From an uncultured Gaiellaceae bacterium (GTDB lineage: Bacteria > Actinomycetota > Thermoleophilia > Gaiellales > Gaiellaceae): DNA of 64,000 nt. Below are positions 8,720 to 35,850 of the stretch, piece by piece (the stretch's first letter is position 1; every line of letters begins with the position of its first letter). The notes beneath the pieces are model-generated. The model did not search any database. It was not told the DNA's origin and was given only the letters and a program-made list of their open reading frames with translations. Location: the NCBI GenBank assembly GCA_963730405.1, contig CAVSRW010000017.1, positions 20,955 through 84,954 of the forward strand, read 5' to 3'. A program made the translations under genes and the position numbers.

Positions 8720-9097
8720 GTGGATCGCCGCCTGATCCAGGGACACTCGCCGATGGAGCCGGTCTTCGGCTTCTCGCGCGCAGTCGTCTCCGGCCGGAAC
8801 GTCCACGTCGCCGGGACGGCGCCGATCCCGCGCGAGGGGGAGCCGCCGGAGGGCGCCTACGAGCAGATGCGGCTCTGCCTCGAGCTCGTCGGCGAGGCGC
8901 TCGGGAAGGCGGGCGCCGGCTTCGAGGACGTGGTCCGGACGCGGATGTTCATCGTCGACCCGGCCGACTGGCAGGAGGTGGCACGCGCGCACGGCGAGGT
9001 CTTCGGCGAGATCCGGCCCGCGGCGACGGCGGTCGTCACGAACCTGCTCGACCCACGCTGGAAGGTCGAGCTCGAGGCGGACGCGGTCCTGCCGTGA
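8720..9097 (+). CDS. RidA/YjgF-family (endoribonuclease L-PSP-like) protein
   Basis: FGFSRAVVSGRNVHVAGT..VRTRMFIV..PAATAVV follows the RidA/YjgH-like pattern. An internal ATG at 8753 is an alternative start. Confidence 0.75.
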   Translation: MDRRLIQGHSPMEPVFGFSRAVVSGRNVHVAGTAPIPREGEPPEGAYEQMRLCLELVGEALGKAGAGFEDVVRTRMFIVDPADWQEVARAHGEVFGEIRPAATAVVTNLLDPRWKVELEADAVLP

Positions 9098-10293
9098 AGC
9101 AGATCTACCCCCACTCGATCACCGGCAAAGGCGCCGTCGCCGGCGGCAGCGTCCTCGACCACACGTTCGGGCAGTCCGATCCGTACACGCTCGGCGTCGA
9201 GGAGGAGTACATGCTCCTCGACGGCGAGACCTACGACCTCGTCCAGCACATCGACACCGTGCTGCAGGCGATCTCGGGCCACGAGCTGGAGCCGCGGATC
9301 AACGCCGAGCTGATGCAGTCGGTGCTCGAGATCGCGACACCGGTCTGCCACACCGCCGGCGACGTGCAGGGCGAGCTGGTGAAGCTGCGGGCGTACGTGA
9401 GCCAGGTCGGCCGTGAGCAGGGGATGCGCGTCGGCTCGGCGGGCACGCACCCGTTCAGCCTCTTCGAGCGGCAGCGGATCACCGCGCGCGACCGCTACCG
9501 GAACCTCGTCGACCAGCTCCAGTACATCGCCCGGCGCGAGCTGATCTTCGGCATGCACGTCCACGTCGCCGTCGACGGCCCGGAGAAGGCGATCCAGGTC
9601 GTGAACGGCCTCCTCCCCCAGCTCGGGCCGCTGCTCGCGCTCTCGGCCTCGTCGCCTTTCTGGCGCGGCGAGCCGACGGGCCTCGCCTCGAGCCGGCAGA
9701 TGGTCTTCGCCGCGTTCCCGCGCTCGGGGCCGCCGCCGCGGTTCCGCGACTACTCCGACTACGCCGAGGTCGTCGGCCAGCTCGAGCGGACCGGCTGCAT
9801 CGCCGACTACACGCACATCTGGTGGGACATCCGGCTGCACCCCCGGCTCGGCACGATCGAGATCCGGATCTGCGACGCCGTCACGCGCGTGGAGGACGCC
9901 GCCGCGCTCGCCGCCTACTGCCAGGCGCTCGTGAAGCTGCTGTCGGAGCAATACGACCGCGGCGAGGAGATCCCGAGCTACCACCGGATCCTGACCACCG
10001 AGAACAAGTGGCTCGCGGCCCGCTACGGGCTCGAGGCGCCGGTGATGGATCTCGCCACCGGGGCCCGCAACCGGATCCCGGTCGCGCAGCTGATCCGAAG
10101 GACGCTGAAGGAGATCCAGCCGCATGCGCGCGAGCTCGGCTCCGACCGGGAGCTCGAGGGGATCGGCGAGATCCTCTCGCGGGGGAACGGTGCCGACCGC
10201 CAGCTGCGCGTCTTCAACGCCAACCGCGACATCGCGGAGGTCGTCGAGGAGATCGCGAAGGCGACCGAAGCCGTCCCGCCGCCTGCGTCCTAG
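9094..10293 (+). CDS. ybdK: carboxylate-amine ligase, glutamate-cysteine ligase family 2 (YbdK-like)
   Basis: YTLGVEEEYMLLD..ELMQSVLEIATPV..GTHPF..ELIFGMHVHV..SASSPFW..WWDIRLHPRLGTIEIRICD. GTGA overlap with the RidA-like gene. Confidence 0.9.
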   Translation: MKQIYPHSITGKGAVAGGSVLDHTFGQSDPYTLGVEEEYMLLDGETYDLVQHIDTVLQAISGHELEPRINAELMQSVLEIATPVCHTAGDVQGELVKLRAYVSQVGREQGMRVGSAGTHPFSLFERQRITARDRYRNLVDQLQYIARRELIFGMHVHVAVDGPEKAIQVVNGLLPQLGPLLALSASSPFWRGEPTGLASSRQMVFAAFPRSGPPPRFRDYSDYAEVVGQLERTGCIADYTHIWWDIRLHPRLGTIEIRICDAVTRVEDAAALAAYCQALVKLLSEQYDRGEEIPSYHRILTTENKWLAARYGLEAPVMDLATGARNRIPVAQLIRRTLKEIQPHARELGSDRELEGIGEILSRGNGADRQLRVFNANRDIAEVVEEIAKATEAVPPPAS

Positions 10294-10384
10294 GCCGCTC
10301 CTGCGCCGACGCGGTCGGTCAGGTTGCGCCCTGACCGTCGACACGGCGCAGCTGTGCGTCGGCTCGCCGAGCTAGATTCGCGGC

Positions 10385-10816
10385 GTGTTCTGGCTCGACA
10401 CCGGCGCGGAGATGGAGCTCGAGGAGCTGCTCGAGGAGGGGCCGGTGCTGCTCGTCTTCTACCTCTTCGACTGGTCGCCGACCTGAAGCCAGGAGCTGCG
10501 CCTCCTGCGTGACAGGCGGCCGGAGTTCGAGCGGGCGGGCGTGCGCGTCTTCGGCGTCTCGCGCGACTCGCACTGGTCGCACCGGGCCTGGAAGGACGTC
10601 CTCGACGTGGACGTGCCGCTGCTCTCCGACTGGAACGGCTCCCTGGCCAAGCGGTTCGGCGCCGCGCGCGTCTGGCGCTGGATGGAGCAGGTGCCGCGGA
10701 GGAGCGCGTACCTGGTCGGCGAGGACGGTACGGTGCTCGGATCGTGGCGGTACGCGGACTCGGACGTGCCCGACTTCGACGAGCCGCTCGCGGCCGCGCG
10801 GGCGTTGCGGGACTAG
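10385..10816 (+). CDS. AhpE/Bcp-like peroxiredoxin with in-frame TGA (10484-10486) at the peroxidatic Cys position; candidate selenoprotein
   Basis: Same frame on both sides of the TGA: VFWLDTGAEMELEELLEEGPVLLVFYLFDWSPT-TGA-SQELRLLRDRRPEFERAGVRVFGVSRDS..PLLSDW. The track lists only 10541..10816. See findings. Confidence 0.65.
10500..10520 (+). other. candidate bacterial SECIS hairpin for the peroxiredoxin UGA
   Basis: GCC(U)CCUG-CGUGA-CAGG(C)GGC has 7 bp with one mismatch. It starts 14 nt after the UGA, and the apical loop contains GU at +22..+26. Confidence 0.4.
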
Positions 10817-29594: not shown

Positions 29595-29603
29595 ACTCGT
29601 TGC

Positions 29604-31043
29604 GTGGACGTGCTCCGGCTGGCGAGCCTGCTCGAGGAGCTGCCTCCCGAGCGGACGCGGCTGCTCGACAACCTCGGCCGACTCCGGCGCGAGGTCGGGC
29701 CGATCACGCCGGAGCTCTCGGACGCGCTCGCCGACCGGATGAACCTGCGCCGTGGCGACGTGCACGAGGTCGTCTCCTTCTACTCCTTCCTCCAGGTGCC
29801 GGTCGACGCCGTGCGGGTCTGCACGGGGCCCGTGTGCGACTGTGCAGGCTCGCGGGACCTGCTGAGCGACGGTGCCATCGAGGTGCCGTGCCTCGGCCAC
29901 TGCGACCTCGCGCCGGTCGTCCTGCACGGCGACGACGTCCTCGGCGGGGTCACGCACTCGACGAACGGCTTCCTGCTCGAGCCGGACGAGATCCGCGAGC
30001 CCGCGGCACTCGCGCCCGACGAGGTCGTCGCGCGGCTGGAGGCGTCCGGCCTGACGGGGATGGGCGGCGCAGGCTTCCCGACCTGGCGGAAGTGGGACGC
30101 GGTGCTTGGCGAGCCGGGGCCGCGCGTCGTGATCGTCAACGCCGACGAGGGCGAGCCGGGGACGATCAAGGACCGCTATGTGATGGAGCTGCGACCGCAG
30201 CTCCTCCTCGAAGGGCTCGAGGCGGCGATGCGCTTCTGCGAGACCGACGAGGCGTACATCTACCTCCGGGAGGAGTACGCGACGTCGCGCGAGCGGCTGC
30301 GCGAGGCGATCGCGGCCCGCGGCCTCCCCGTCCGGCTCGTCGTCGGCGCCGGGGCGTACATCTGCGGCGAGGAGACGGCCATGCTGGAGTCCATGGAGGG
30401 CCGCCGGGGGATGCCGCGCCTGCGTCCGCCGTTCCCGACCCAGTCCGGCTACCTCGGCCGGCCGACGCTGATCAACAACGTCGAGACGCTCGCGCACGTC
30501 GCCCTGATCCTCCGCGGCGGCTGGGAGCCGGTGCGGCTCTGGTCGGTCTCGGGCGCGGTCGGGAAGCCCGGCTGCTACGAGGCGCCGCTCGACGTGACAC
30601 TGCGAGGCCTGATCGACGGGTATGCCGGCGGCCTCACCGCCGAGCCCGGCGCCATCGTTCCCGGCGGCGCCGCCAGCGGCATCCTCCCGCCCTCAGCGCT
30701 GGACACGCCGCTGACGCGGGAAGCGCTCGCCGAGTGGGGCTGCGGCGTCGGCTCGGCGGCCGTCCAGGTCTTCCCGGCGGAGTACTCGCCCGTGCGGCTG
30801 CTCGCCGAGACGATGCGCTTCTTCGCCGAGGAGTCGTGCCAGAAGTGCACTCCTTGCCGGATCGGGAACCGCGCCCTGCACGCGGTCTTCGAGGGCGAGC
30901 GGACGATGTCGCGCGTCCGGACCGACGAGTGGCTCGACGCGATGGTGCTGACCTCGATCTGCGGGCTCGGCCAGGCCGCGCCGGTGCCGGTCCGGAACGC
31001 GCTCGCGCACTGGCCGGAGCTCTTCGAGAAGATGACCGCATGA
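29604..31043 (+). CDS. formate dehydrogenase diaphorase subunit, fused NuoE-like/NuoF-like (FdsB-type)
   Basis: The thioredoxin-like 2Fe-2S part has C..C..C..C (VCTGPVCDC..CLGHC). The NuoF part has GLTGMGGAGFPT, EGEPGT and ESCQKCTPCR. ATGA overlap with fdhA. Confidence 0.85.
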   Translation: MDVLRLASLLEELPPERTRLLDNLGRLRREVGPITPELSDALADRMNLRRGDVHEVVSFYSFLQVPVDAVRVCTGPVCDCAGSRDLLSDGAIEVPCLGHCDLAPVVLHGDDVLGGVTHSTNGFLLEPDEIREPAALAPDEVVARLEASGLTGMGGAGFPTWRKWDAVLGEPGPRVVIVNADEGEPGTIKDRYVMELRPQLLLEGLEAAMRFCETDEAYIYLREEYATSRERLREAIAARGLPVRLVVGAGAYICGEETAMLESMEGRRGMPRLRPPFPTQSGYLGRPTLINNVETLAHVALILRGGWEPVRLWSVSGAVGKPGCYEAPLDVTLRGLIDGYAGGLTAEPGAIVPGGAASGILPPSALDTPLTREALAEWGCGVGSAAVQVFPAEYSPVRLLAETMRFFAEESCQKCTPCRIGNRALHAVFEGERTMSRVRTDEWLDAMVLTSICGLGQAAPVPVRNALAHWPELFEKMTA

Positions 31044-33730
31044 TCGAGTTCACGCTCGACGGCAGGACCGCAACGGCCTCCGAGGGCGAGCTCCTCGTCC
31101 ACGCGGCGGCCCGGAACGGCGTCTTCATCCCGACCCTGTGCCACGACGACAAGCTGGCGCCGTACGGGGGCTGCCGGATGTGCGTGGTCGGCGTCGAGGG
31201 GGCACCGCGGCCGCTGCCGGCCTGCGCGACCCGTGTCGCCGACGGAATGGTCGTCTCCACGGACACGAACGTGCCGCAGCTGCGGAGGACGCTGACCGAG
31301 ATGCTCCTCTCCGAGCACCTGAACGCCGACCCGGGCGGGCGGCCCAACGAGCTGACCGATCTCGCCGCGGAGCTCGGCGCCGAGGCGCCGTTCCTGCTCC
31401 CGGACGCGAAGCGCGAGCCCTACGACGACCGGAACAAGCTGATGGGCTACGAGCCGGACACGTGCATCCTCTGCAACCGCTGCGTCCGCTACACGCAGGA
31501 GGTGATGCAGTGCTCCGCGCTCTCGCTCGAGGGGCGCGGTCCCGAGGCGCGCATCGTCCCCACCTGGGAGCGGAGCTGGCTCGACACCGAGTGCGAGCTC
31601 TGCGGCGGCTGCCTCTCGACGTGCCCGACCGGCGCGATCTACGAGAAGTTCCTCGAGGGCGCCGGCGTCGAGGAGCGCGCGCTCGAGCAGGTCAAGACGA
31701 CCTGCACCTTCTGCGGCGTCGGCTGCCAGCTCGACCTCAACGTCGACCCGGACACGAAGCGGATCGTGAAGGTGACCTCGAAGCCGGAGTACGTCTCGAA
31801 CGAGGGCAACCTCTGCGTGAAGGGGCGCTTCGCCTTCAATTTCGTCCACCACCCCGACCGCCTGACCGAGCCGCTCGTTCGGGGCGAAGACGGCGAGTTG
31901 CACCCGACGACCTGGGAGGACGCGCTCCAGGTCGCCGCCGACGGGCTGAAGGGGGTGATGGAGCGCCACTCGCCGCAGCATGTCGGCGTGCTCAGCTCGG
32001 CCCGGCTGACGAACGAGGAGAACTACCTGATCCAGAAGCTCGCCCGGACCGGCCTGCAGACGCACTCGGTCCACTCGTGCGAGGCCACCTGACACGCTCC
32101 GACCCTCTACGGCCTGGTCAGGTCGTTCGGCAGAGGCGCCTCCACCAACTCGATCCCGGAGATCGACAACGCCCGCTTCCTGCTCGTGATCGGCTCGAAC
32201 ACGACCGAGGCGCACCCGGTGCTGGCGTTGCGGATCAAGAAGGCGGTGCGGAACGGCGCAACCCTCGTCGTCGCCGACCCCCGCGCGATCTGGCTGACGA
32301 AGCTCGCGAAGCGGCACCTGCAGCTGCGACCCGGCTCCGACGTCTGGCTGCTGAACGCGCTCATGCACGTGATCCTCGAGGAGGGGCTGCAGGACGATGC
32401 CTACATCGCCGAGCACTGCGAGGACTTCGACGCGGTGCGCGATGTGGTCGCCCGCTACACCCCTGAGGACGCCGAACGGGTGACGGGCGTTCCGGCCGAG
32501 GCCATTCGGGACACGGCGCGCGAGTACGCGACCGAGCGGCACGCGGCGATCTTCTACACGCTCGGGATCACCGAGCACGCCTGCGGCGTCGACAACATCT
32601 GGTCGCTCGCGAACCTCGTCCTGATGACGGGCCACCTCGGCTACGAGTCGACGGGCCTGAACGCGCTGCGCGGCCAGAACAACGTCCAGGGCCTGAACGA
32701 CTCCGGCGCGAACCCGCACTACTTCCCCGGCTACCAGTCCTGGGACGACCCGGAGGTGCGCGAGAAGTTCGCAGCCGCCTGGGGCGTCGACCTGCCCGAG
32801 CGCGCCGGCTACCGGCTCGACCAGATGATGTCCGGGCTCCACGACGGCCGGATCAAGGCGCTCTACCTGGTCGGCGAGAACCCGGCGCAGACGGAGCCGA
32901 ACGCCCACCACGTCGAGGAGGGCCTCCGGCAGCTCGAGTTCCTCGTCGCGCAGGATCTCTTCCTGAACGAGACCTCGCGGCGGCACGCGGACGTCGTCCT
33001 GCCGGCATCGAGCTTCGCCGAGAAGGACGGCACGTTCACGAACACGGAGCGGCGGATCAACCGCGTCCGCGCCGCTGTGCCGCTCCCGGGGAACGCGCGC
33101 GGCGACCGGGAGATCGTGATCGCGCTGGCTCGCGCCCTCGGCTGCGACTGGCCCGAGTATCCCGACGCCGAATCGGTCTGGGACGAGCTCGCCGACCTCT
33201 CGCCGAACTGGTTCGGAGTCCGCTACCCGCGACTGGAGGAGCACGGGCTGCAGTGGCCGTGTCCGAACGAGGATCACCCGGGGACGCCGTTCCTGCATGC
33301 GCCGTCGCCGTCACGGCCGAACGGAAAGGGGAAGTTCCATCCGGTCGAGTACCAGCCGCCGATCGAGGAGCCGGACGCCGAGTTCCCGTTCGTCCTCTCC
33401 ACCGGCCGGACGCTCTACCACTACAACTCGGCGACGATGACCATGCGTGAGGACGGGATCACCGACAAGCAGGTCGAGCCCTTCTTCGAGATCGCGCCCG
33501 AGGACGCCTCGGCGCTCGGGGTGGCGGAAGGCGAGTGGGTACGGCTGGTCTCGCGCCGCGGCGACCTGCAGGCGCGCGCCCAGCTCTCCGATCGCGTCTA
33601 TCCCGGGCTCGTCTGGATGGCGCTCCACTTCGCAGAGGCGCGCGTGAACTGGCTCACGCACGATGTCGGCGACCCGCTGATCGGGACGCCCGAGTACAAG
33701 GTCTCGGCCGTGCGGCTCGAACGCGTGTGA
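31040..33730 (+). CDS. fdhA: formate dehydrogenase catalytic subunit, selenocysteine-containing (UGA at 32090-32092)
   Basis: A single frame joins the tail of track ORF 28442..32092 to 32186..33730. It has NuoG-like N-terminal Fe-S clusters, then ..HSVHSCEAT-U-HAPTLYGLVRSFGRGASTNS..LLVIGSNTTEAHPV.., a Mo/W-bisPGD fold. Confidence 0.92.
32109..32126 (+). other. SECIS hairpin of fdhA
   Basis: ACGGCCU-GGUC-AGGUCGU has 7 bp including one G-U pair. It starts 17 nt after the UGA and has a GGUC apical loop. Confidence 0.65.
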
Positions 33731-34425
33731 TCGGGTCGCCGCGCCGGCACGTGGAGGAGTGCGAGTCGACGCAGCTCCTGCTCGGGCCGGACGATCCGGA
33801 AGGGGCGATCGCGACGACCGACCACCAGACCGCCGGCCGCGGCCGTCGCGGCCGGAGCTGGGTCGAGGCGCCCGGGACGGCGGTGCTCGTGTCCGTTCTG
33901 CTGCGGCCGCCGCCGGAGCGCGTCGCGCCGCAACTCTCGCTCGTCGGGGGCCTCGCGGCGGCCATGGCGGCCGAGGACGCGCTCGGACTGGCGGCGCAGA
34001 TCAAGTGGCCGAACGACGTCATGGTGAACCGGCGGAAGATCGCAGGCGTGCTCGCCGAGGCGCGGGACGGGATCGTCGTACTCGGGATCGGGATCAACGT
34101 CAACCAGAAGCGCGAGCAGCTGCCGCTCGATGCGCGCGTGCCCGCCGCGTCCCTGCGGACGGTCGACGGCCGCGAGCGCGACCGGGAGCAGGTGCTCGAC
34201 CTGCTGCTCGCCCACCTCGACCGGCTCTACGGCGCGTGGCGGGAAGGCGGCCTCGACGCCGTCTACGAGGATCTCGGCGCACGCGACTTCCTCCGCGGCC
34301 GCCGGGTCACGGTCGACGGAGCCGCCGGCACGGCGCAGATGATCACGCGCGACGGCCGCCTCGCCGTCGAGACCGACTCAGGCCCGATCGAGGTCGAGAG
34401 CGGCGAGGTCGCGTTCGAGCGCTGA
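33727..34425 (+). CDS. birA: biotin--[acetyl-CoA-carboxylase] ligase (no N-terminal HTH)
   Basis: HQTAGRGRRGRSW..KWPNDV..KIAGVLAE. GTGA overlap with fdhA. The 3' end overlaps convergent mobA by 48 nt. Confidence 0.88.
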   Translation: MIGSPRRHVEECESTQLLLGPDDPEGAIATTDHQTAGRGRRGRSWVEAPGTAVLVSVLLRPPPERVAPQLSLVGGLAAAMAAEDALGLAAQIKWPNDVMVNRRKIAGVLAEARDGIVVLGIGINVNQKREQLPLDARVPAASLRTVDGRERDREQVLDLLLAHLDRLYGAWREGGLDAVYEDLGARDFLRGRRVTVDGAAGTAQMITRDGRLAVETDSGPIEVESGEVAFER

Positions 34426-34968
34426 CAGCTCCTCGGGCGTGTTCGCATTCGCGAGCAGCCGTGGGTCTGCGTCGACCCGGCGCGGGTTGACGCCGCGGAG
34501 CGACCAGTCGCCGGATGCCAGCCTCCGCTCGAGCTCCGGCAGATCGGTGCGGGCATAGGCGCCCGGCAGCGGCCCCGTCTGCGTGACGGCGCGACGCTCG
34601 GCCAGCTCTCGCAGCAGCGACGGCGTCACGAGCGGGCAGTCGACCGGGAGGAAGACGGCCATCTCGGTCGCAGCCGTCCGGAGCCCCGCGATCACGCCGA
34701 CGAGCGGTGCCCGGGGCTCGGCCGGCTCGACGGCGACGTCGAAGGGCAGCTCGAGGTCGCCCTTGCCGACCGCGAGCCTCTGCGGGAACGCCTCGCCGAG
34801 AATGCGCCAGGCGCGCTCCGCGAGCGTCTCGCCGGCGAAGAGCGCGAGCGCCTTCGGCGACCCGAAGCGCGTCGACGCGCCGCCGACGAGCAGCACCCCG
34901 GTGCAGGCCGAGACTTTGTGTTTCAGAAACACAAGCGTCCGCCCCGCGGCGGCCAACCGCATGACCAT
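34378..34968 (-). CDS. mobA: molybdenum cofactor guanylyltransferase
   Basis: GVLLVGGASTRFGSPKAL..PVDCPLV motifs. The start is uncertain: ATG 34968 or 34962 lie inside a hairpin, and GTG 34932 lies inside palindrome R3. Confidence 0.8.
   Translation of the reverse strand: MVMRLAAAGRTLVFLKHKVSACTGVLLVGGASTRFGSPKALALFAGETLAERAWRILGEAFPQRLAVGKGDLELPFDVAVEPAEPRAPLVGVIAGLRTAATEMAVFLPVDCPLVTPSLLRELAERRAVTQTGPLPGAYARTDLPELERRLASGDWSLRGVNPRRVDADPRLLANANTPEELSALERDLAALDLDRA
34916..34936. repeat. AT-rich perfect palindrome copy R3 (TTGTGTTTC-A-GAAACACAA-GC; left flank ct)
   Basis: Read directly. Lies in the mobA 5' region and translates as VFLKHK on the minus strand. Confidence 0.95.
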
Positions 34969-34986
34969 GCGGATCCGCGGAGCGGA
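34938..34986 (-). promoter_or_regulatory. nested GC-rich hairpin enclosing both candidate mobA ATG codons
   Basis: Outer stem TCCGCCCCGCGG / CCGCGGAGCGGA pairs at 11 of 12 positions. Inner stem is CCGCATG / CATGCGG. Both CATG arms are the ATGs at 34968 and 34962. Confidence 0.5.
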
Positions 34987-34992
34987 AGAGGC

Positions 34993-35015
34993 GCTTGTGT
35001 TTCAGAAACACAAGC
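34993..35015. repeat. AT-rich perfect palindrome copy R4 (GCTTGTGTTTC-A-GAAACACAAGC)
   Basis: Read directly. Begins 2 nt after the fdhD stop. Its centre is 79 bp from the R3 centre. Confidence 0.95.
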
Positions 35016-35017
35016 TC

Positions 35018-35815
35018 TCACGCGACCACCCGCCACGCCTCCGTGTAGACGTTGAGCGAACCGCCGCGGACGAAGCCGCAGAGGGTGATCCCGCGGTCGG
35101 CGGCGAGCTCGACCGCGAGCGACGAGGGCGCGCCGACCGCGACGAGCAGCGGGCAACCGGCGACGGCGGCCTTCTGGACGAGCTCGAACGAGAGGCGGCC
35201 GCTGACGCAGAGGATCGAGTCCGCGAGGGGCAGCAGCCCGTCGAGGAAGGCGCGGCCGAGCACCTTGTCGAGTGCGTTGTGGCGCCCGACGTCCTCACGG
35301 ACGCAGAGTAGGTCGCCCGCGGCGGAGAAGAGCCCGGTCGCGTGGAGACCGCCTGTGGCCTCGAATGCCTCCTGGGCGCCGCGCAGCAGGTCGGGGAGCC
35401 GGCCGACGAGCGTGGCCTCGACCTGCAGCGTGCTCTCGATCCGAGGCGCCTCGACCGCGATCGCCTCCAGAGCGCCCTTGCCGCAGACGCCGCAGGAGGA
35501 CGAGGTGTAGAAGCTCCGCCGCAGACGGTCGACGTCGGCGCCGGGCGCCTCGACCTCGACCGTGTTCGCGGCGAGATCGTCGGGCACGCGCGCCGCGAGC
35601 GGCCGCAGCCCCTCGGAGAGGCAGAACCCGATCGCCAGCTCCTCGTCGTGGCCGGGCGTCCGCATCGTCACGGCCACGGGAACGCCGCCGATCCGGATCT
35701 CCAGCGGCTCCTCGACCGCGACGAGGTCGCCCGTCTCACCGCCCGGCACCCGCGTCACCCGCACACGGGCGGTGGTGTGAGCGGGCGTTCTCACGTGCGC
35801 AAGCGTACAACGCAA
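35018..35815 (-). CDS. fdhD: formate dehydrogenase accessory sulfurtransferase
   Basis: EEPLEIRIGG..SSSCGVCGK..GGLHA..DVGRHNALDKV..SGRLSFELVQKA. The start is TTG 35815 or GTG 35794. Confidence 0.9.
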   Translation of the reverse strand: MRCTLAHVRTPAHTTARVRVTRVPGGETGDLVAVEEPLEIRIGGVPVAVTMRTPGHDEELAIGFCLSEGLRPLAARVPDDLAANTVEVEAPGADVDRLRRSFYTSSSCGVCGKGALEAIAVEAPRIESTLQVEATLVGRLPDLLRGAQEAFEATGGLHATGLFSAAGDLLCVREDVGRHNALDKVLGRAFLDGLLPLADSILCVSGRLSFELVQKAAVAGCPLLVAVGAPSSLAVELAADRGITLCGFVRGGSLNVYTEAWRVVA

Positions 35816-35850
35816 GGTTTCTCGCGACCCGGCATCTCAATTGTTAGGAA

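Follow-up and report, generated by a model that had tools for sequence, protein, structure and literature searches.

Does the in-frame UGA in a short peroxiredoxin (Prx) gene of an uncultured Gaiellaceae bacterium end translation, or is it read as selenocysteine (Sec)? The gene lies on a 64-kb stretch of DNA with 72% GC, hereafter the window, and all coordinates refer to window numbering. The list of open reading frames (ORFs) contains only 10541–10816, as the earlier note had observed when it proposed that the same frame runs upstream, through a TGA, to a GTG. The GTG (10385), the in-frame TGA (10484–10486) and a TAG (10373–10375), which in the translated window is in frame upstream of the GTG, were each found where that note had placed them. 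We conclude that 10385–10816 (+) very probably encodes a functional BCP/AhpE-type peroxiredoxin of 143 residues, in which the UGA at 10484–10486 specifies Sec at the peroxidatic site. An independent short ORF starting at 10541 was considered and rejected.

To identify the product, Cys was put at the TGA. The resulting translation of 143 residues matched the Pfam family AhpC-TSA (PF00578) with an E value of 4.6e-23 and a score of 81.9 bits (cut-off 26); the match covered residues 7–117 and ran across the TGA. The Pfam family Redoxin was matched as well. In HMMER alignments to solved structures, the TGA codon fell on the peroxidatic Cys of Aeropyrum PrxQ (2cx3, ..FSPVCTKE..), a Burkholderia peroxiredoxin (5enu, ..NTPGCTTE..) and Mycobacterium tuberculosis BcpB (5epf, ..MTPGCTKE..), the position to which it had been assigned before. 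When the motif PxxxT/SxxC(U) was examined, S-P-T-U was present, with Ser at −3 and Sec at 0. R106 (..VPRRSAYLV..) was invariant in the family alignment and aligned with the conserved Arg strand of the same three structures (..kRavfiv.. / ..eRstfli..). The translation contains no Cys, and the family has no conserved Cys column. As judged from the translation, the protein has the 1-Cys-type (AhpE-like) trait of lacking a resolving cysteine.

An AlphaFold (AF2) model was made for the Cys orthologue P0056, with a predicted local distance difference test (pLDDT) score of 86. Its template modeling (TM) score was 0.85 against Bcp4 (3hjp), 0.83–0.86 against BcpB (5epf) and 0.82–0.86 against M. tuberculosis AhpE (4x0x/5c04), the last at 33% identity. 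The nearest solved structures are those of BCP/PrxQ and M. tuberculosis AhpE, and the two could not be told apart; the label AhpE/Bcp-type used before is fair. The position-by-position alignment with AhpE that accompanied this label is likewise consistent with the structural match. With 36.4 bits, the protein stayed far below the 270-bit cut-off of the NCBIfam equivalog for PrxU (NF040737), and it reached no other NCBIfam Prx equivalog either.

If the UGA is read as Sec, it is expected to be retained in related species, with the protein under selection on both of its sides. Among species-representative genomes, a scan detected 376 relatives, of which the best 80 loci were examined; all belong to Gaiellaceae, Thermoleophilia or unclassified actinobacterial metagenome-assembled genomes (MAGs). 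TGA occupied the site in 79 of the 80 loci, the remaining one carrying TGT (L053). When all 85 homologous sequences were counted, the codon was TGA in 82, TGC or TGT in two and AGA in one; among the metagenome contigs, two had TGA (L001, L002) and one TGC (L003). Down to ~52% amino-acid identity, the reading frame was unbroken before and after the TGA, with two exceptions. Tables of codon usage and pairing were made from 73 TGA-bearing sequences. In these, amino acids from codon −30 to codon +38 around the TGA were conserved while synonymous sites varied. Upstream of the TGA, five codons were used for Ser −3, six for Leu −12, and four each for Gly −15 and Pro −14. Because upstream residues are kept while their synonymous sites vary, the 33 N-terminal codons are translated.

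Two kinds of irregular sequence were seen among these relatives. The exceptions mentioned above are two Microflora Danica long-read MAGs, in which the Prx gene is frameshifted, past the conserved region in L039 and around it in L037; the frameshifts are probably homopolymer errors of long-read assembly rather than true pseudogenes. The AGA (Arg) codon, one base away from TGA, was found at 283–285 of a single short metagenome contig (L086) whose hairpin (see below) is fully kept; it reflects either a read error or an inactivation of very recent date.

The database entries for this family reflect the stop. A protein search returned 588 homologues. Among the best 120, 114 calls begin past the TGA and are 86–128 amino acids long; where they bear a name, it is peroxiredoxin in JGI entries and "redoxin domain-containing protein [Gaiellaceae bacterium]" in NCBI entries. 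The other six span the N-terminus and show W at the site in four JGI calls (P0001, P0026, P0058, P0066), Cys in P0056 and Arg in P0072. The DNA behind P0001 and P0026 (L001 and L002, respectively) reads TGA at the site, and the printed W is thus an artefact of the gene caller's choice of code. Such entries could mislead alignments into a "W" active-site variant.

A hairpin with the geometry of a bacterial Sec insertion sequence (SECIS) had been proposed at 10500–10520. It is present as described, and it is constrained at the nucleotide level across relatives. The hairpin begins 14 nt past the UGA, inside the ORF, and its apical loop begins 21 nt past the UGA. Seven of its eight pairs form, the eighth being a U/C mismatch, and the isolated 29 nt fold at −13.7 kcal/mol. 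The loop, CGUGA, has G in second place followed by U, above an upper stem of 6–9 bp. Spacing and loop G are reportedly part of the bacterial SECIS model behind the bSECISearch criteria of Zhang and Gladyshev.

The codons that form this hairpin hardly vary. At +6 to +10, which encode L L R D R, the codons were CTC in 70/71, CTG in 73/73, CGT in 73/73, GAC in 72/72 and AGG in 69/73 sequences. Both Arg codons are rare in the window: counted over 15 confident genes, CGT accounts for only 4.8% and AGG for 3.5% of the codons for Arg. The Arg residues at +20 and +26 of the Prx gene itself have the usual CGC/CGG. Conserved Leu, Arg, Ser and Gly residues elsewhere in the gene are encoded by 3–6 codons each. 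The frozen block coincides with the upper stem and loop of the predicted hairpin, and it is the strongest nucleotide constraint in the gene. Pairs were then counted on a 9-bp stem (columns 16–24 with 30–38 of alignment A2). On this stem 79% of cells were paired, versus 30–50% when the 3' partner was slid. The covariation score of the stem was 0.091 versus 0.053 in shuffled alignments, and none of 500 shuffles reached 0.091. Compensatory changes were found at the base of the hairpin, where pair 18–36 is GC in 38 sequences, CG in 11 and UA in one.

The earlier note had suggested asking which codon the orthologues carry and whether they retain the structure. TGA and hairpin are kept together in relatives, and the hairpin is gone in Cys forms. 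The scenario that would have spoken for a dead gene, a TGA without conserved structure and with additional disruptions, is the reverse of what the orthologues show. Only two orthologues encode Cys, with TGC in L003 (2297) and TGT in L053 (4326). At +6 to +10 both have CTG CTG CGC GAC CGC, and the hairpin does not form. In a neighbour-joining tree they make up one small clade nested among TGA-bearing sequences. Since the Cys clade is nested within the TGA clade, the family appears, from these sequences, to be ancestrally Sec, with a single later reversion to Cys accompanied by decay of the SECIS.

Whether the host can decode Sec was judged from the fdhA gene of the window, which the earlier note had named as a Sec-UGA gene. 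Its UGA was located at 32090–32092, at the classic Sec site (context SCEATUHAP). The Pfam Molybdopterin and TIGR01591 matches split there, with profile positions 1–125 before the TGA and 130–671 after it; the two TIGR01591 halves score 128.5 and 616.1 bits, a sum above the 666-bit cut-off. A hairpin follows, its GGUC loop capping a stem that ends in CCU/AGG; it shares this stem top and the GU of the loop with the Prx hairpin, and its spacing from the UGA is similar. The competence of the host for Sec rests on this Sec-TGA.

Several results weigh against a Sec-peroxiredoxin with its own SECIS. The first concerns the fold: the free energy of the hairpin is no better than that of shuffled GC-rich sequence, with z values of +0.85 for 10484–10560 (77 nt), −0.55 for 50 nt and −1.6 for 29 nt. 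Because the sequence is 72% GC, stability alone is no proof of a SECIS, and significance is therefore drawn from the comparative data. RNAalifold by itself recovered only the top three, invariant pairs, and the U/C mismatch of the window's stem (columns 20/34) is shared by 5/73 sequences. No Rfam model matched when the whole window was searched at the gathering threshold, and the site gave nothing but noise at E values up to 10. In the protein, Leu replaces the near-universal Pro of the Prx motif at −7 (FYLFDWSPTU), in all family members including the Cys forms. Finally, neither the window nor ~1.3 Mb of DNA flanking the Prx gene in relatives yielded selA, selB, selD or tRNA-Sec; since the choice of loci had nothing to do with such genes, the result is uninformative. 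In this search, tblastn of the E. coli K-12 SelA, SelB and SelD against the window and all loci gave no match, and no gene of the Sec machinery turned up in Pfam scans of ~30 ORFs of the window. With ARAGORN, the window gave no tRNA at all, tRNA-Sec included, and 60 related loci gave tRNA-Arg and tRNA-Ala only.

The start of the gene had been the main caveat of the earlier note, which took the short N-terminus and the upstream TAG as possible signs of decay. This caveat is resolved. The short N-terminus is common to ~30 species, and the TAG supplies the first three letters of a TANNNT box that is conserved in relatives. Of 77 homologous loci, 50 have TANNNT exactly 6 nt upstream of the GTG/ATG start and 61 have it at 5–8 nt; the background is 0.5% of all ATG/GTG in the window. 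The variants are TAGATT, TAGGCT, TAGGGT and TAAGCT. The pattern is found both in the clade with the short N-terminus, to which the window belongs, and in the clade in which it is 11 residues longer. At one and the same position the start codon alternates between mostly GTG and ATG (L025, L026, L032), and the JGI call P0001 begins here. In leaderless promoters of actinobacteria, a TANNNT −10 element ends ~6–7 nt before the start codon, which is also the transcription start, and a Shine-Dalgarno sequence is lacking. The Prx gene is probably expressed from a leaderless mRNA, with the TAGATT as its −10 box. A scan for E. coli-type sigma-70 −35/−10 promoters and terminators around the gene found nothing. 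In nine species (L044, L054, L055, L059, L066, L067, L068, L077 and L032) the Prx start and the stop of the preceding gene share bases as ATGA/GTGA, an arrangement that implies translational coupling to the YbdK-type ligase gene in those species.

From these observations we infer the following course of events. The gene would be transcribed as a leaderless mRNA from TAGATT, 6 nt before the GTG, with translational coupling taking its place in some relatives. The hairpin with the CGUGA loop would act as an in-ORF bacterial SECIS, 14 nt past the UGA. It would bring SelB with Sec-tRNA(Sec) to the ribosome, whereupon the UGA would be read as Sec and not as a stop. The resulting enzyme is predicted to react with peroxide, forming a selenenic acid on Sec. 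Because the protein is without any cysteine, an external reductant would be required, either a thiol or a redoxin, as in 1-Cys-type enzymes ("1-Sec").

The rival reading that survives best has the UGA decoded as one of the standard amino acids Trp, Cys and Gly, either through near-cognate read-through or under an alternative code; the hairpin would then be a general stimulator of read-through. The four JGI calls printing W would agree with it, as would the fact that the Sec machinery was not directly observed. A reassigned code is contradicted by the window itself. TGA terminates many Pfam-confirmed genes, among them MMPL, NuoF-like and fdhA, and the genetic code is therefore standard; for this reason code 4 (TGA = Trp) was rejected, and there is no code-4/25 reassignment. 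The UGA occupies the position of the catalytic Cys, where Trp or Gly would abolish activity and where Cys is the sole natural alternative seen. Moreover, the spacing of the hairpin and the G at loop position 2 fit the bacterial SECIS model, and fdhA has its UGA at a classic Sec site. We consider such recoding highly improbable.

A second rival is a decaying pseudogene: a one-time Cys-peroxiredoxin gene in which TGC mutated to the nonsense codon TGA and a TAG arose upstream, and from which a fragment is made at most. It would explain the in-frame TGA and TAG, the N-terminus that is short compared with canonical peroxiredoxins, the Leu in place of the motif Pro and the frameshifts in two MAG loci. 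However, the TGA is nearly universal among the loci and the protein is under purifying selection in both halves; the TAG belongs to a conserved box that also precedes the ORFs of relatives with the long N-terminus; the Leu is a family trait that extends to Cys forms; and the frameshifts are limited to two long-read MAGs. We give decay next to no credence. Equally hard to credit is that the block CUCCUGCGUGACAGG owes its constraint to something other than Sec insertion (for instance a regulatory RNA, a protein-binding site or an antisense feature), with the UGA a regulated stop between two products: its conservation is mainly one of sequence, covariation is confined to the lower stem and its thermodynamics are unremarkable, but it strictly co-occurs with TGA, both are lost together in the nested Cys forms, the contig with AGA keeps it as expected of a very recent change or read error, it is spaced from the UGA as a SECIS would be, and the 33 upstream codons alone make no functional domain.

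A Sec-peroxiredoxin remains by far the best explanation, and its relation to known systems can be described. Sec-peroxiredoxins are textbook knowledge, as are bacterial SECIS elements placed inside an ORF. PrxU of Eubacterium acidaminophilum, from Sohling et al. in 2001, is said to be the prototype. As a group, Sec-containing peroxiredoxins (PF00578, T/SxxU site) form a recognised family of bacterial selenoproteins (PMC1794560; PMC13188914), for which Table 1 of Zhang et al. gives five Cys-to-Sec conversion events (PMC1794560). In earlier surveys, the family was found mostly in anaerobic Deltaproteobacteria and Clostridia (PMC1794560). Unlike those hosts, the lineage described herein belongs to high-GC soil Gaiellaceae (Actinomycetota). 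With PrxU-type proteins it shares the AhpC/TSA fold, Sec in place of the peroxidatic Cys in (T/S)xxU, a SECIS placed in the ORF shortly past the UGA and the existence of Cys homologues. The Gaiellaceae protein is not an orthologue of PrxU, however: it is short and BCP/AhpE-like (143 residues), has Leu for the motif Pro and is free of Cys.

The BCP/PrxQ proteins (Bcp4 3hjp, Aeropyrum 2cx3/4gqf, BcpB 5epf and Xanthomonas 5ima) are the best matches in sequence and structure, with an E value of 4e-16 for 2cx3, and they are of equal size, with a monomer-type core. They differ in using Cys, many with a resolving Cys five residues on, whereas Sec is found here without a second Cys or Sec. Mycobacterial AhpE (4x0x, 5c04) is similar in being an actinobacterial 1-Cys-type peroxiredoxin of ~150 residues without a resolving Cys, and it gave the highest structural-alignment identity among the structure matches listed. 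It differs in having Cys, the Pro of PxxxTxxC and a full N-terminus; in the sequence search, AhpE was not among the best 60 of 111 matches to solved structures. The predicted SECIS resembles those of the E. coli fdhF/fdnG type in its location inside the ORF, its loop G followed by U and its placement past the UGA. Its 5-nt CGUGA loop and CCUG/CAGG stem top distinguish it from known bacterial SECIS elements and are particular to the Prx family described here. The SECIS of E. coli fdhF has a bulged U, which has no evident counterpart in the Prx hairpin.

Our literature searches returned no selenoprotein report for Gaiellales or Thermoleophilia. The locus is a new lineage of the known Sec-Prx family, widespread in soil Gaiellaceae and unannotated, and not a new kind of system. 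A selenoprotein specialist would find little surprise in it; its value is that of a well-supported correction of annotation with some evolutionary interest. The true product would be a selenoprotein of 143–159 amino acids, and a selenoprotein model in NCBIfam and the Prokaryotic Genome Annotation Pipeline (PGAP) would mend the truncated calls. The Gaiellaceae, an almost uncultured soil lineage, would gain a selenoproteome of at least Sec-Prx and Sec-FdhA. An ancestral Sec that reverted to Cys with decay of the SECIS would be a clean natural example of Sec/Cys exchange. Finally, a peroxiredoxin with Sec only and without Cys would be a simple system in which to ask what reduces selenenic acid in bacteria, with the neighbouring ligase and membrane protein as candidates.

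Table 1. Features of the predicted Sec-peroxiredoxin locus and of the fdhA region in the window
Feature	Position	Strand	Evidence or remark
Predicted Sec-peroxiredoxin gene	10385–10816	+	Single 143-codon gene of AhpC/TSA fold
GTG start codon	10385–10387	+	GTG at the same position in most orthologues with short N-terminus
N-terminal coding part, 33 codons	10385–10483	+	Outside the called ORF; codon table; Pfam match from residue 7
UGA, predicted to be read as Sec (S-P-T-U, peroxidatic position)	10484–10486	+	Alignment to solved Prx structures; TGA across species
C-terminal coding part with TAG stop (10814–10816)	10487–10816	+	Includes called ORF 10541–10816
SECIS-type hairpin, GCCUCCUG-CGUGA-CAGGCGGC	10500–10520	+	Core 10502–10516 (CUCCUGCGUGACAGG) nearly invariant across species
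TAGATT hexamer, putative −10 element (TANNNT) of a leaderless transcript	10373–10378	+	Conserved spacing to start
YbdK-type carboxylate-amine ligase (GCS2)	9061–10293, start approximate	+	Pfam GCS2 E 7e-57; NF010039 397.8 bits vs cut-off 371
Polytopic membrane protein, 498 amino acids	10744–12240, start codon uncertain	+	tblastn; directly downstream in 75 loci
fdhA (formate dehydrogenase alpha; N-terminal 2Fe-2S/4Fe-4S domains)	31046–33730	+	Sec-UGA 32090–32092; hairpin 32109–32126
NuoF-like gene, neighbour of fdhA	29595–31043		
mobA-like gene, neighbour of fdhA	34378–35001	−	
fdhD, neighbour of fdhA	35018–35836	−	

The genes on both sides of the Prx gene are conserved as well. In 73 loci the YbdK-type gene precedes the Prx gene with the same orientation, and in about one third of these it is directly adjacent. 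The downstream gene for the membrane protein, which matched no Pfam or NCBIfam family, overlaps the 3' end of the Prx gene in nearly all loci, by ~70 nt here if GTG 10744 is the true start. With these same-strand neighbours conserved, the loci are orthologous, and the arrangement suggests that the Prx gene and its neighbours form a functional module. As a speculation, the YbdK-type ligase could supply a thiol reductant for the peroxiredoxin. A fuller version of this idea, which we regard as doubtful, is an ancestral, dedicated three-gene antioxidant module of Gaiellaceae that joins the ligase, taken to be gamma-glutamyl-cysteine-like, a cysteine-free "1-Sec" peroxiredoxin made from a leaderless mRNA and the membrane protein, and in which a low-molecular-weight thiol made by the ligase reduces the selenenic acid. 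If true, it would constitute a selenium-dependent peroxidase system coupled to a low-molecular-weight thiol, a functional analogue of eukaryotic glutathione peroxidase on a peroxiredoxin scaffold.

Between the ligase gene and the Prx gene, 23 nt past the GCS2 stop, lies a perfect 8-bp inverted repeat, CGGTCAGG-TTGCGC-CCTGACCG (10316–10337, +), without a T-run. It may be a terminator, or a hairpin for processing, in the interval that separates GCS2 from the Prx promoter.

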